Of a DNA stretch of 17,312 bases, positions 13,073 through 16,760 are shown one piece after another (position 1 is the stretch's first letter; every line of letters begins with the position of its first letter). The notes under the pieces are model-generated. The model made no database searches and was not told where the DNA came from. It saw nothing but the letters and a program-made list of their open reading frames with translations. The stretch lies in IMG/VR virus record IMGVR_UViG_2850790056_000002; one strand, 5' to 3'. Origin of the DNA: a virus (Duplodnaviria > Heunggongvirae > Uroviricota > Caudoviricetes). Both the position numbers and the translations under genes were made by a program.

Positions 13073-14338
13073 TGAGGTAGCCTGAGTTTAACGGACACTC
13101 CTTCCTGAAATAGAATGGTATCAGAAGGAGCTAATAATGAGCAGAAAAACCCAACGTTACTCTAAAGAGTTCAAAGCCGAAGCTGTCAGAATGGTTCTTG
13201 AAAATCAACTTTCGATCAGTGAAGGCGCTTCCCGATTATCCCTTCCTGAAGGCACTTTAGGACAATGGGTTACCGCCGCCAGAAAAGGGCTCGGTACTCC
13301 TGGTTCCCGCACGGTGGCTGAACTGGAATCTGAAATTCTGCAACTGCGTAAGGCGTTAAATGAAGCTCGCCTTGAGCGAGATATATTAAAAAAAGCAACA
13401 GCGTATTTTGCACAGGAGTCGCTGAAAAATACGCGTTAATCGAACAATGGCGACAACAATTTCCCATTGAAGTGATGTGTCAGGTATTTGGTGTATCCAG
13501 GAGCGGTTATTACAACTGGGTACAGCATAAACCCTCAGACAGAAAACAAAGTGATGAGCGACTAAAACTGGAGATTAAGGTGGCACATATCCGCACTCGC
13601 GAAACATATGGAACCCGGCGGCTCCAGACGGAGCTGGCAGAGAATGGCATCATCGTTGGTCGTGACCGACTGGCACGTCTTCGTAAGGAGCTAAGGCTAC
13701 GCTGTAAGCAGAAACGCAAGTTCAGAGCGACTACGAACTCGAACCACAATCTGCCAGTTGCGCCAAATCTGCTGAACCAGACGTTCGCTCCTACAGCACC
13801 AAATCAGGTCTGGGTGGCGGACCTGACGTATGTTGCCACACAGGAGGGATGGTTGTACCTCGCTGGCATCAAAGATGTTTATACGTGCGAAATTGTCGGC
13901 TACGCCATGGGAGAGCGCATGACAAAAGAGCTGACAGGTAAAGCCCTGTTTATGGCGCTCAGGAGCCAGCGCCCACCTGCCGGGCTAATCCACCACTCTG
14001 ATCGAGGTTCACAGTACTGCGCATACGATTACCGGGTCATACAGGAGCAGTTTGGTCTGAAAACATCAATGTCGCGTAAAGGTAACTGTTACGACAACGC
14101 TCCGATGGAAAGCTTCTGGGGAACGCTGAAAAATGAGAGCCTGAGCCACTATCGTTTTAATAACCGGGATGAAGCCATCTCAGTAATACGGGAATACATT
14201 GAGATTTTCTACAATCGTCAGCGTCGTCACTCTCGTCTGGGGAATATCTCCCCGGCAGCCTTCAGGGAAAAATATCATCAGATGGCTGTGCTTAAAAAAA
14301 GAACAAATGGTAGTGTCCGCTATTGCCAGTACACCTCA
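13073..14338 (+). mobile_element. IS600 copy 3, full length (1266 bp; variant with 2-bp insertion near the orfB stop), no flanking direct repeat
   Basis: Both terminal repeats present; left flank is the IS911 fragment; gctgtgctt at 14284-14292 versus gctgctt in copy 1. Confidence 0.9.
13137..13439 (+). CDS. IS600 OrfA
   Basis: 100-aa ORF, one substitution (T to M) relative to copy 1. Confidence 0.9.
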
Positions 14339-14374
14339 AGTCTGATGTCTTTATCACCGTCAGCTTTTCCCTGA
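13472..14374 (+). CDS. IS600 OrfB with C-terminal read-through extension past the right inverted repeat into flanking DNA (stop at 14372-14374)
   Basis: 2-bp insertion removes the native stop; ORF continues ...REKYHQMAVLKKRTNGSVRYCQYTSSLMSLSPSAFP. Confidence 0.85.
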   Translation: MMCQVFGVSRSGYYNWVQHKPSDRKQSDERLKLEIKVAHIRTRETYGTRRLQTELAENGIIVGRDRLARLRKELRLRCKQKRKFRATTNSNHNLPVAPNLLNQTFAPTAPNQVWVADLTYVATQEGWLYLAGIKDVYTCEIVGYAMGERMTKELTGKALFMALRSQRPPAGLIHHSDRGSQYCAYDYRVIQEQFGLKTSMSRKGNCYDNAPMESFWGTLKNESLSHYRFNNRDEAISVIREYIEIFYNRQRRHSRLGNISPAAFREKYHQMAVLKKRTNGSVRYCQYTSSLMSLSPSAFP

Positions 14375-14532
14375 TACGCAGCAATAATCAGCCCGCCAAT
14401 GTCAGGGTCTCCCCATCTGTTGCGGACAGAGCTCGCCGCGATTCTGTAAATAATATCTTCTGCGGTTATATTTATTTTCACCCAGTCAGTCAGAAATCCA
14501 GATAAGAGCCGGTAGCAGGCGTGATAAATGGG
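14339..14532 (-). other. 194-bp orphan coding fragment between two IS600 copies, open on the minus strand (remnant of a deleted gene)
   Basis: One minus-strand frame has no stop across the whole segment (...TDWVKINITAEDIIYRIAASSVRNRWGDPDIGGLIIAAYQGKADGDKDIR...); family not recognised. Confidence 0.35.
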
Positions 14533-14596
14533 TGAGGTAGCCTGAGTTTAACGGACACTCCTTCCTGAAATAGAATGGCATCAGAAGGAGCTAATA

Positions 14597-14899
14597 ATGA
14601 GCAGAAAAACCCAACGTTACTCTAAAGAGTTCAAAGCCGAAGCTGTCAGAACGGTTCTTGAAAATCAACTTTCGATCAGTGAAGGCGCTTCCCGATTATC
14701 CCTTCCTGAAGGCCCTTTAGGACAATGGGTTACCGCCGCCAGAAAAGGGCTCGGTACTCCTGGTTCCCGCACGGTGGCTGAACTGGAATCTGAAATTCTG
14801 CAACTGCGTAAGGCGTTAAATGAAGCTCGCCTTGAGCGAGATATATTAAAAAAAGCAACAGCGTATTTTGCACAGGAGTCGCTGAAAAATACGCGTTAA
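14597..14899 (+). CDS. IS600 OrfA
   Basis: 100-aa ORF, one substitution (T to P) relative to copy 1. Confidence 0.85.
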   Translation: MSRKTQRYSKEFKAEAVRTVLENQLSISEGASRLSLPEGPLGQWVTAARKGLGTPGSRTVAELESEILQLRKALNEARLERDILKKATAYFAQESLKNTR

Positions 14900-14934
14900 T
14901 CGAACAATGGCGACAACAATTTCCCATTGAAGCG

Positions 14935-15254
14935 ATGTGTCAGGTATTTGGTGTATCCAGGAGCGGTTATTACAACTGGGTACAGCATGAACCCTCAGAC
15001 AGAAAACAAAGTGATGAGCGACTAAAACTGGAGATTAAGGTGGCACATATCCGCACTCGCGAAACATATGGAACCCGGCGGCTCCAGACGGAGCTGGCAG
15101 AGAATGGCATCATCGTTGGTCGTGACCGACTGGCACGTCTTCGTAAGGAGCTAAGGCTACGCTGTAAGCAGAAACGCAAGTTCAGAGCGACTACGAACTC
15201 GAACCACAATCTGCCAGTTGCGCCAAATCTGCTGAACCAGACGTTCGCTCCTAC
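14935..15254 (+). pseudogene. IS600 orfB, truncated after ~106 codons by the adjacent IS600 copy
   Basis: ORF-track 14935-15267 ends ...NQTFAPTEVA; the last codons derive from the terminal repeat of copy 5. Confidence 0.85.
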
Positions 15255-16520
15255 TGAGGTAGCCTGAGTTTAACGGACACTCCTTCCTGAAATAGAATGG
15301 CATCAGAAGGAGCTAATAATGAGCAGAAAAACCCAACGTTACTCTAAAGAGTTCAAAGCCGAAGCTGTCAGAACGGTTCTTGAAAATCAACTTTCGATCA
15401 GTGAAGGCGCTTCCCGATTATCCCTTCCTGAAGGCACTTTAGGACAATGGGTTACCGCCGCCAGAAAAGGGCTCGGTACTCCTGGTTCCCGCACGGTGGC
15501 TGAACTGGAATCTGAAATTCTGCAACTGCGTAAGGCGTTAAATGAAGCTCGCCTTGAGCGAGATATATTAAAAAAAGCAACAGCGTATTTTGCACAGGAG
15601 TCGCTGAAAAATACGCGTTAATCGAACAATGGCGACAACAATTTCCCATTGAAGCGATGTGTCAGGTATTTGGTGTATCCAGGAGCGGTTATTACAACTG
15701 GGTACAGCATAAACCCTCAGACAGAAAACAAAGTGATGAGCGACTAAAACTGGAGATTAAGGTGGCACATATCCGCACTCGCGAAACATATGGAACCCGG
15801 CGGCTCCAGACGGAGCTGGCAGAGAATGGCATCATCGTTGGTCGTGACCGACTGGCACGTCTTCGTAAGGAGCTAAGGCTACGCTGTAAGCAGAAACGCA
15901 AGTTCAGAGCGACTACGAACTCGAACCACAATCTGCCAGTTGCGCCAAATCTGCTGAACCAGACGTTCGCTCCTACAGCACCAAATCAGGTCTGGGTGGC
16001 GGACCTGACGTATGTTGCCACACAGGAGGGATGGTTGTACCTCGCTGGCATCAAAGATGTTTATACGTGCGAAATTGTCGGCTACGCCATGGGAGAGCGC
16101 ATGACAAAAGAGCTGACAGGTAAAGCCCTGTTTATGGCGCTCAGGAGCCAGCGCCCACCTGCCGGGCTAATCCACCACTCTGATCGAGGTTCACAGTACT
16201 GCGCATACGATTACCGGGTCATACAGGAGCAGTTTGGTCTGAAAACATCAATGTCGCGTAAAGGTAACTGTTACGACAACGCTCCGATGGAAAGCTTCTG
16301 GGGAACGCTGAAAAATGAGAGCCTGAGCCACTATCGTTTTAATAACCGGGATGAAGCCATCTCAGTAATACGGGAATACATTGAGATTTTCTACAATCGT
16401 CAGCGTCGTCACTCTCGTCTGGGGAATATCTCCCCGGCAGCCTTCAGGGAAAAATATCATCAGATGGCTGTGCTTAAAAAAAGAACAAATGGTAGTGTCC
16501 GCTATTGCCAGTACACCTCA
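15255..16520 (+). mobile_element. IS600 copy 5, full length (1266 bp; same 2-bp-insertion variant as copy 3), no flanking direct repeat
   Basis: Both terminal repeats present; flanks tac versus act do not match; gctgtgctt at 16467-16475. Confidence 0.9.
15319..15621 (+). CDS. IS600 OrfA
   Basis: 100-aa ORF identical to copy 1 OrfA. Confidence 0.9.
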   Translation: MSRKTQRYSKEFKAEAVRTVLENQLSISEGASRLSLPEGTLGQWVTAARKGLGTPGSRTVAELESEILQLRKALNEARLERDILKKATAYFAQESLKNTR

Positions 16521-16760
16521 ACTTGTCAGGGGGCGGTCATACAGAGGCTCACGACTGGGACCGGTGGGGATTTCAGCGCCCTGTACTCCCACCGGAACGC
16601 ATATAGTATACCCACAATATTTCATTACGGGATGTTCAGAGCATTCATTACCGGGGTCATATCGCGCCCTGTCCGGGGTGCCGGATACATATGTCTCTGG
16701 CGCAATGCTTGGGCTTTTTATTCGCACATCGTGAGGAATGGAATGCACCGTGGAAATTAA
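15657..16760 (+). CDS. IS600 OrfB with 95-codon read-through extension into flanking DNA
   Basis: Same 2-bp insertion as copy 3; 367-aa ORF runs to 16760, well past the IS end at 16520. Confidence 0.8.
   Translation: MCQVFGVSRSGYYNWVQHKPSDRKQSDERLKLEIKVAHIRTRETYGTRRLQTELAENGIIVGRDRLARLRKELRLRCKQKRKFRATTNSNHNLPVAPNLLNQTFAPTAPNQVWVADLTYVATQEGWLYLAGIKDVYTCEIVGYAMGERMTKELTGKALFMALRSQRPPAGLIHHSDRGSQYCAYDYRVIQEQFGLKTSMSRKGNCYDNAPMESFWGTLKNESLSHYRFNNRDEAISVIREYIEIFYNRQRRHSRLGNISPAAFREKYHQMAVLKKRTNGSVRYCQYTSTCQGAVIQRLTTGTGGDFSALYSHRNAYSIPTIFHYGMFRAFITGVISRPVRGAGYICLWRNAWAFYSHIVRNGMHRGN
16522..16734 (+). pseudogene. 3' remnant (about 70 codons) of a gene interrupted by IS600 copy 5; possibly a phage gene, unassigned
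   Basis: Open frame from the IS600 junction to tga at 16732-16734, 3 nt before the next gene's RBS-supported start; no 5' part in the window. Confidence 0.3.

Follow-up and report, generated by a model that had tools for sequence, protein, structure and literature searches.

Two of the five IS600 copies in the window, by which we mean the whole stretch of 17,312 nucleotides analysed, carry a 2-bp insertion that removes the stop codon of orfB, and the gene is then read on into the flanking DNA. The best explanation, to which we assign a probability of about 0.8, is that both belong to a heritable Shigella dysenteriae sublineage of IS600 (IS3 family) with a read-through transposase, and that this sublineage has continued to transpose into many sites. 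In the proposed mechanism, a tandem duplication of TG, five bases ahead of the orfB stop, would shift the frame; OrfB and the -1-frameshifted OrfAB would be translated on through 17 codons of the IS, over the right inverted repeat, to the first chance stop in the adjoining DNA, which would yield a different tail at each site. Nothing is altered in orfA, at the slippery site, in the catalytic core or in either inverted repeat, and the variant has kept transposing into many chromosomal and plasmid sites with normal 3-bp duplications. The relevant features are, in order of position:

7121..8384, plus strand: IS600 copy 1, canonical, 1264 bp; orfB stop TAG; 3-bp duplication AAT
11751..12187, minus strand: IS600 copy-2 fragment, IS positions 828-1264; canonical stop TAA
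12188..13072, minus strand: IS911 remnant, interrupted by copy 3; complete (1250 bp) in strain 1617
13073..14338, plus strand: IS600 copy 3, TG variant, 1266 bp, both inverted repeats intact
13137..13439, plus strand: orfA of copy 3, 100 aa, HTH_Tnp_1 domain
13386..13395, plus strand: programmed -1 frameshift motif TTAAAAAAAG of copy 3, in the orfA/orfB overlap
13472..14374, plus strand: read-through orfB of copy 3, 300 aa from its GTG start, 299 aa from ATG 13475
13529..13531, plus strand: E19K codon AAA of copy 3
14287..14290, plus strand: TGTG of copy 3, which includes the 2-bp insertion (tandem duplication); a single TG in canonical copies
14292..14301, plus strand: second TTAAAAAAAG, at the orfB 3' end of copy 3, overlapping the TAA of the canonical stop, here out of frame
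14339..14341, plus strand: AGT, directly next to the right inverted repeat of copy 3; one half, inverted, of the 3-bp target duplication (ACT)
14339..15254, no strand: 916-bp segment inverted with respect to strain 1617, made of flank F and copy 4
14533..15254, plus strand: IS600 copy 4, what remains (positions 1-722) of an old IS600 of the canonical type (E19), interrupted by copy 5
15255..16520, plus strand: IS600 copy 5, TG variant, 1266 bp
15319..15621, plus strand: orfA of copy 5
15568..15577, plus strand: -1 frameshift motif of copy 5
15657..16760, plus strand: read-through orfB of copy 5, 367 aa, with 79 codons and the stop in flanking prophage DNA
15711..15713, plus strand: E19K codon AAA of copy 5
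16469..16472, plus strand: TGTG of copy 5, which includes the 2-bp insertion
16521..16523, plus strand: ACT, directly next to the right inverted repeat of copy 5; second half of the 3-bp target duplication shared with copy 3

The sequence GCTGTGCTTAAAAAAAG has exactly two matches in the window, at 14285-14301 and 16467-16483, and none of 200 shuffles contains two; the first-pass annotation had the second position right, and placed the first at 14284-14300, off by one. At the same site, copy 1 reads GGCTGCTTAG and the copy-2 fragment reads GGCTGCTTAA; this fragment and copy 4 derive from one old IS600 that IS911 split, the fragment being its right part. In the alignment of the four right ends, as in that of all five copies, IS position 1214 is followed by an additional TG in copies 3 and 5 and in no other, which confirms the earlier claim that these two copies share an insertion absent from copies 1 and 2. 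The variant is thus 1266 bp long, versus 1264 bp for the canonical copy 1, to which it is 99.6% identical over its full length. Copy 3 is 99.3-99.8% identical to the other IS600 copies, with private SNPs at IS positions 47, 120 and 401.

In canonical IS600, the orfB stop is TAA or TAG, 44 bp from the right end and immediately upstream of the inverted repeat. The last 75 bp of the IS contain stops in this frame only: the remaining two frames are open to the end of the element. In the TG variant, orfB does not terminate inside the element upstream of the right inverted repeat, and no alternative upstream stop exists that could have undone the first reading: downstream of the catalytic domain, the frame stays open to the end of the IS. 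The absence of an in-element stop separates the variant from the reference IS600; it is not a criterion for naming an IS. The translations of copies 3 and 5 display the loss of the stop and the read-through across the right inverted repeat, with extensions of 28 and 95 codons, as the first-pass annotation had counted them.

Canonical OrfB has 272 amino acids and ends in HQMAA. The OrfB of copy 3 ends in HQMAVLKKRTNGSVRYCQYTS followed by SLMSLSPSAFP, these last 11 codons and the stop lying in flanking DNA; the portion of the tail encoded by the IS is 17 residues long, VLKKRTNGSVRYCQYTS, and overlies the right inverted repeat. The Pfam matches rve, rve_2, rve_3 and HTH_21 span residues 27-266, with no difference between the variant OrfB and the canonical one: they end at residue 266 of 272, and the frameshift point lies beyond the last recognisable residue of the DDE integrase core. 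The extension of copy 5 holds no Pfam domain. The slippery motif TTAAAAAAAG at IS position 314 joins orfA and orfB in the OrfAB products annotated by PGAP, the NCBI pipeline, in which the joined protein has 412 aa for the variant versus 385 aa for the canonical form, the extension being retained. The real transposase would be this OrfAB frameshift fusion, carrying the same extension as OrfB. The terminal inverted repeats are imperfect, with complementarity at 20 of the first 30 positions and termini TGAGGT...ACCTCA.

The variant is not new to databases. Regions matching the copies are annotated as "IS3-like element IS600 family transposase", PGAP treating the variant as an intact gene of this name whose CDS ends 27 nt past the IS, and the annotation of Sd197 already has it as "IS600 ORF2", with varying lengths. 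The OrfB of copy 5 is annotated in CP026782.1 as a 367-aa CDS; an exact-protein look-up of the copy 3 ORF from its ATG gave no match, this ORF being recorded only as the joined OrfAB. A literature search on IS600, its stop codon and read-through brought up no account of the variant.

Protein names and shared loci assign the window to a Shigella dysenteriae chromosome. The same TG insertion is present in independent S. dysenteriae assemblies, namely Sd197, 1617, an NCTC strain and three plasmids; its carriers include the ABB6xxxx proteins of Sd197, the SPZ proteins of the NCTC strain, and KT754164, NC_032099, CP026779 and CP026784. The exact 101-bp variant end occurs on S. dysenteriae plasmids only (3-4 of 790 IS600-carrying plasmids) and in 0 of 2,887 IS600-positive E. 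coli genomes. Species-representative genomes give 0 exact matches to it and 44 to the canonical end, used as a positive control, and the variant is absent from two IS600-rich representative genomes. The TG variant thus appears confined to S. dysenteriae in every collection searched, collections that hold few Shigella chromosomes.

If each transposition of the variant makes a new C-terminal fusion, as the first-pass annotation had proposed, tails should differ from site to site, and they do: S. dysenteriae proteins (of Sd197, 1617, the NCTC strain and the same chromosome) have 21 distinct tails, which with the two in the window amount to 23 insertion contexts. All 23 tails follow the same 17 IS-encoded residues, and their lengths range from 1 to 319 residues. 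They are unevenly shared, some being found in up to 11 assemblies and others in one. Other IS600 read-through frameshift alleles, in E. coli, have one common tail, that is, one locus. Some tails form in-frame chimeras with host genes, such as an OrfB-APC permease of 607 aa and an OrfB-XylF.

Un-rearranged variant copies are flanked by 3-bp target duplications: CAC in traE of p3099-85 (L001), CCA in CP026779 (L002), and AAC in xylF of the same chromosome (L055). Since these three copies have normal duplications, the variant transposes. When the locus of the window is compared with strain 1617, both copies that are missing there are TG variants, and the copies in common are canonical. Copies 3 and 5 have no individual direct repeats: their right ends share a single ACT duplication, both halves of which (AGT at 14339-14341 and ACT at 16521-16523) abut right ends, in inverted orientation. 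Consequently, the ends of the variant have been acted on by a transposase in this genome.

With respect to strain 1617, the segment 8673-9590 of L004 is inverted in the window, and the 473 bp at 8200-8672 of L004 are missing. Copies 3 and 5 appear to have caused this inversion and deletion jointly, through their two right ends: two facing right ends, from separate inverted IS600 copies, would have attacked a nearby target in the same molecule, by way of a putative intermediate. The sequence built from this model, with a junction at L004 8199, differs from the window over 12.4 kb by about 16 scattered SNPs or indels, and matches it at the proposed junctions. We rejected one insertion with subsequent homologous recombination, intramolecular transposition of one copy by the replicative (Shapiro-type) route, a composite transposon, and models based on sister copies: all of them predict a left end beside one ACT half, and both halves abut right ends. 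The model of two facing right ends is preferred because it alone reproduces the four junctions and the 473-bp loss; it also accounts for the lack of direct repeats around copies 3 and 5.

As a rival explanation, the TG copies could be non-autonomous passengers, with their own transposase inactivated by the extension, or by translation across the right inverted repeat, and moved in trans by canonical OrfAB. Canonical and variant copies do co-occur in the same genome, canonical ones being present in every S. dysenteriae replicon examined, and the ends of the variant do not differ from those of canonical copies, and would hence be recognised by the canonical transposase. However, IS3-family transposases, such as the OrfAB of IS911, prefer to act in cis, which would disfavour passengers. 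The spread of the variant over at least 23 contexts, together with both strain-specific insertions at the locus of the window, also argues against them, as does the position of the frameshift beyond all recognisable domains; moreover, the parallel element IS1239 is reported to be transcribed, with relaxed selection in the tail only (PMC13630536). We thus hold it unlikely that the variant is a mere passenger, and infer that the extended OrfAB would itself be the active enzyme, rather than canonical transposase acting in trans. A second way around the variable tail would be a -1 slip, or an extra transcribed A, at the A7 run next to the insertion: either would lead to a TAG within the IS four codons on, and much of the protein would have the fixed end MAVLKKKNKW. 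The run stands in the context CTT AAA AAA AGA, with the rare Arg codon AGA next; the 3' end repeats, letter for letter, the 10-mer TTAAAAAAAG of the element's programmed -1 frameshift motif, and the predicted slipped product terminates within the IS. Yet the A run is in another codon phase than at the programmed site, so that no X XXY YYZ heptamer is formed; we regard such slippage as quite improbable.

The same A7 homopolymer, which adjoins the insertion, might raise the suspicion of a sequencing or assembly artefact, or of a TG copied between repeats by assembly polishing, all the more since the strain 1617 plasmid assembly CP006737 has homopolymer indels at this very place; a count of variant versus canonical ends on CP006737 was dropped, that assembly being full of indels at the site. 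The added bases, however, are TG and not a change in homopolymer length, independent assemblies by different groups with different technologies agree over more than 10 years, and canonical copies in the same window, with GGCTGCTTAA in the copy-2 fragment, were assembled without the TG: an artefact is hardly credible. A transposing sublineage with a read-through transposase thus remains the reading that we favour.

The first-pass annotation also took an E-to-K change near the N-terminus of OrfB as the mark of a distinct sublineage. This change, G457A or E19K, is indeed found in both copy 3 and copy 5, and in the alignment neither copy 1 nor copy 4 has it, but it does not define the TG lineage: the TG insertion is also found with E19, in P0007, P0008, P0010 and P0126, and in the p3099-85 and xylF copies. 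Consequently, K19 marks only a sub-branch within the TG lineage. Together, the TG insertion and E19K offer simple markers for following IS600 sublineages.

S. dysenteriae type 1 is a textbook case of genome decay driven by insertion sequences, and IS600 is its one recently active IS: Sd197 has 54 IS600 copies, and in S. dysenteriae IS600 is the sole IS with high recent activity, rivalling that in S. sonnei (Hawkey et al. 2020, PMC7373316). In reading this activity, it should be kept in mind that many copies, in at least 23 contexts, represent a separate allele, in which the C-terminus of the transposase is not fixed. It is tempting, though rather far-fetched, to see in the TG variant the form behind the unusually high recent activity of IS600 in S. 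dysenteriae type 1; the altered C-terminus of the transposase, or ribosomes crossing the right inverted repeat and thereby changing cis-activity or auto-regulation, could be routes to it. The read-through would also create in-frame chimeras with host genes. On the practical side, ORFs of the variant appear in annotations under arbitrary lengths or fused to host genes, here a permease and a sugar-binding protein; such annotations split protein clusters, and may mislead pseudogene and pan-genome counts.

The rearrangement recalls the reactive end-to-end junctions of the IS3 and IS30 families, and the "inside-out" inversions and deletions of Tn10. In these systems, two facing ends jointly attack a nearby target within one molecule; what lay between the ends disappears, the DNA as far as the target is inverted, and the duplication is found inverted beside the two ends, which fits the arrangement at 13073-16523 when set against strain 1617. 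The difference is that here two right ends come from separate inverted copies, whereas a circle or tandem dimer has a right-left junction. The window is also a clean natural example of two IS3-family right ends jointly inverting and deleting DNA.

Canonical IS600, as found in S. sonnei, S. flexneri and E. coli, shares orfA, the slippery site, the integrase core, the inverted repeats and the 3-bp duplication with the variant, but keeps its orfB stop inside the element. The closest precedent for the TG variant is IS1239 of Streptococcus pyogenes, in which the transposase gene has lost its internal stop through a small lineage-specific frameshift at its 3' end, a deletion of 1 bp (Bao et al. 2026, PMC13630536); each copy has a distinct C-terminal extension drawn from the DNA downstream of its site, and the element is still multi-copy (PMC13630536). 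The consequence is the same, a stop taken from flanking DNA, but IS1239 is another IS, in a Gram-positive host, with target repeats of about 14 bp and extensions of 3-171 bp, whereas the TG variant belongs to the IS3 family, with orfA/orfB frameshifting, a 2-bp duplication, 3-bp target duplications and tails of up to 319 aa. Flanking target DNA also supplies the stop of the transposase ORF in IS870 of Agrobacterium vitis and in ISMt1 of M. tuberculosis (as cited in PMC13630536; Fournier et al. 1993). There, insertion takes place at CTAG, which yields a stop immediately and a protein that does not vary, whereas the TG variant follows no target rule (CAC, CCA, AAC, ACT) and its tails vary in length. 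Judging by these traits, the TG variant resembles IS1239, and not IS870: it is a lineage-specific instance of a phenomenon already described in other insertion sequences.

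The IS600 variant described here, in which a TG insertion precedes the orfB stop, is a lineage-specific allele that has proliferated without an internal stop. The window that holds two copies of it is a decayed and heavily degraded lambdoid prophage, with sitABCD, ompN and ydbK as neighbours and with a RusA homologue, a Hok-like toxin and a holin among its genes. It carries three copies or parts of IS1, one IS2, one truncated IS911, and five copies or parts of IS600. By exact protein match, the 367-aa ORF of copy 5 belongs to CP026782.1, a chromosome of 4.46 Mb (GCA_002949815.1), and the source name of the proteins from this contig is Shigella dysenteriae.

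Insertion sequences and two prophage genes of the window (the three IS1 entries are about 99% mutually identical)
1-709: IS1, copy or part
1159-1371: Hok-like toxin ORF
3248-3622: RusA homologue
6114-6822: IS1, copy or part
7121-8384 (+): IS600 copy 1, 1264 bp
8721-9430 (-): IS1, copy or part
about 10000-11330: IS2, TnpA and TnpB ORFs at 10056-11329
11751-12187 (-): IS600 copy 2, fragment, IS positions 828-1264
12188-13072 (-): IS911, truncated
13073-14338 (+): IS600 copy 3, 1266 bp
14533-15254 (+): IS600 copy 4, IS positions 1-722
15255-16520 (+): IS600 copy 5, 1266 bp

Aligned with copy 1, copies 3 and 5 show an extra TG after position 1214, the substitution G457A, and two further differences at positions common to other copies too. 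The 17-mer GCTGTGCTTAAAAAAAG has two sites in the window, 14285-14301 and 16467-16483, and no third one even at three mismatches; two matches occurred in none of 200 shuffles. The first-pass annotation had located the second site correctly and the first one base too early, at 14284-14300. The canonical OrfB has 272 aa and ends in ...HQMAA before its stop. In copy 3 the protein reads ...HQMAVLKKRTNGSVRYCQYTS, then 11 residues encoded by the flank; in copy 5, the same 17 IS-encoded residues are followed by 79 from the flank, for a total of 367 aa. Over the last 75 bp of IS600, stops exist in the canonical frame only: a frameshift at the 3' end must therefore read out of the element. Alignment and translations thus confirm the earlier reading, that a shared TG abolishes the orfB stop of two copies and that OrfB runs through the right end into differing flanking DNA; the finding is real and was correctly read.

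A protein query with the portion of variant OrfB that lies within the IS retrieves several clusters that span the extension. Among the members sampled, which come from Sd197, strain 1617, an NCTC strain and the CP026782.1 chromosome, ...CQYTS is followed by 21 distinct tails, 1 to 319 residues long; with the two contexts in the window, this gives 23 insertion contexts, and bears out the prediction of a new C-terminal fusion at each insertion. Some tails occur in up to 11 assemblies, others in one. An artefact of a single assembly is ruled out as the source of the TG, since the same insertion is present in Sd197, a reference genome published in 2005.

Only three plasmids, all from S. dysenteriae (CP026779, NC_032099 and KT754164), perfectly match a 101-bp query that reaches to the IS terminus; a fourth match, on a plasmid of strain 1617, is imperfect, and the other IS600-bearing plasmids among the matches listed (790 in all) show the 2-bp gap only. 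No perfect match was found in the 2,887 IS600-positive genomes among 5,426 of E. coli. In the species-representative genome collection, the exact variant 40-mer has no match and the corresponding canonical 38-mer has 44, almost all from two IS600-rich genomes. The variant is already in public annotation: PGAP describes the copy of p3099-85 as an intact 'IS3-like element IS600 family transposase' ending 27 nt past the IS, and gives OrfAB 412 aa in copy 3 versus 385 aa in copy 1.

Two records met in these searches call for a remark. The virulence plasmid of strain 1617 (CP006737.1, loci L007-L010) has clustered short repeated IS600-end fragments (for example 62985-63341 and 89689-90122), single-base A-run indels, and most genes broken into small ORFs; it looks low-accuracy and unsuited to typing IS alleles. 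An exact canonical IS600 end also lies on a 2526-bp contig (JAEXBS010000036.1, L023) assigned to a 'Bacteroidetes bacterium' genome assembled from a metagenome; the contig most probably entered that bin as contamination from Escherichia or Shigella.

The first-pass annotation also took an E-to-K change in OrfB as the mark of a sublineage. Copies 3 and 5 do share it, but the TG insertion is seen with E19 as well as with K19; the change therefore marks a branch inside the TG lineage and does not define the whole.

Variant copies with undisturbed flanks have 3-bp duplications, the size expected of IS600: CAC between the p3099-85 genes traL and traK, in the tra region; CCA on CP026779; and AAC in a xylF remnant on the same chromosome as the window. 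One variant copy is interrupted by IS1, in the same state in two genomes. Copies 3 and 5 both lack a direct repeat of their own, and the homologous contig L004 of S. dysenteriae strain 1617 suggests how this came about. It runs collinear with window 4872-13072; beyond that stretch come the remainder of IS911, an old IS600 represented by its left 830 bp (reverse), a 194-bp flank and the region of a DUF4376 gene. In the window, L004 8200-8672 (473 bp) is absent and L004 8673-9590 is inverted, bordered on each side by variant IS600 (13073-16523). The target ACT (L004 9588-9590) appears twice, as AGT at 14339-14341 and as ACT at 16521-16523, at the right ends of copies 3 and 5 respectively.

Homologous recombination cannot change the IS end that abuts a flank, so both junctions were made by transposase, in one event involving two right ends. 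The data fit a single intramolecular event in which the facing right ends of two inverted IS600 copies acted together. One variant copy would have inserted into IS911 and another, oriented the other way, into position 720-722 of the old IS600; their right ends, facing each other 473 bp apart, would then have attacked an ACT located on the same molecule at a distance of about 0.9 kb. The predicted product is L004 1-8199, IS, the reverse complement of 8673-9590, IS, and L004 from 9588 onwards. This model explains the missing direct repeats, and its in-silico reconstruction (junction at L004 8199) shows about 16 scattered SNP or indel differences from window 4872-17312 over 12.4 kb. The copy-2 fragment and copy 4 derive from a single old canonical IS600, which IS911 split in two at IS position 828-830, a structure intact in strain 1617; as the later variants entered both IS911 and the old IS600, the nesting is three deep. 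Strain 1617 lacks two of the IS600 insertions, both of them TG variants; those that it shares with the window are canonical.

Several other, independent read-through frameshift alleles lie near the orfB 3' end in E. coli, in either open frame (P0012, P0150-P0163; also P0061, P0066, P0076, P0081, P0083). In the largest group, of 26 sequences, the tail is always TFHHAFRLTPHSQLNFATL, which implies a single inherited locus; such one-tail alleles look like dead copies inherited in place. The TG lineage, unlike them, has proliferated. Its orfA, slippery motif, integrase core and both inverted repeats are unchanged, and Pfam integrase-core matches in OrfB end at residue 266. The simplest reading of these sequences is that the extended OrfAB is still functional, an inferred step; canonical copies, which co-reside in genomes carrying the variant, could also act on it in trans.

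The 10-mer TTAAAAAAAG, the -1 programmed frameshift motif of IS600 (13386-13395 and 15568-15577), recurs at the orfB 3' end (14292-14301 and 16474-16483), where it overlaps the TAA that serves as the canonical stop. Were the ribosome to slip by -1, or transcription to add an A, at this second site of the variant, the protein would end within the IS, at a TAG following ...MAVLKKKNKW. Read-through itself yields long in-frame chimeric ORFs (P0129, P0008 and P0144, with P0008 at 3001-4158 of L055, the record of the xylF-remnant copy). In one, of 607 aa, OrfB runs into a nearly complete APC-family permease; in another, into the last 97 residues of a periplasmic sugar-binding protein (Peripla_BP_4), which we take to be the xylF product; and in a third, of 541 aa, into a second IS600 OrfB. 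The permease chimera has drawn an unrelated protein, the permease alone (P0127), into the IS600 OrfB cluster.

Sd197 has 54 IS600 copies and, IS600 apart, every IS has its lowest recent activity in S. dysenteriae (Hawkey et al. 2020, PMC7373316); the variant is not mentioned there. Our literature searches, with most subscription journals outside their coverage, found no description of it, and it is apparently undescribed so far. The finding would gain in interest should the variant turn out to cause the high IS600 activity of S. dysenteriae type 1. The stop loss as such is a phenomenon of a known type. An event of the same sort is described for IS1239 of S. pyogenes, where the loss of 1 bp at the 3' end gave copies with variable C-termini drawn from flanking DNA (Bao et al. 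2026, PMC13630536), and the same paper names IS870, ISMt1, IS1547 and IS1110 as elements that have their stop in the flank. IS870 has a target rule that provides an immediate stop; the IS600 variant has no such rule, and thus resembles IS1239 rather than IS870.
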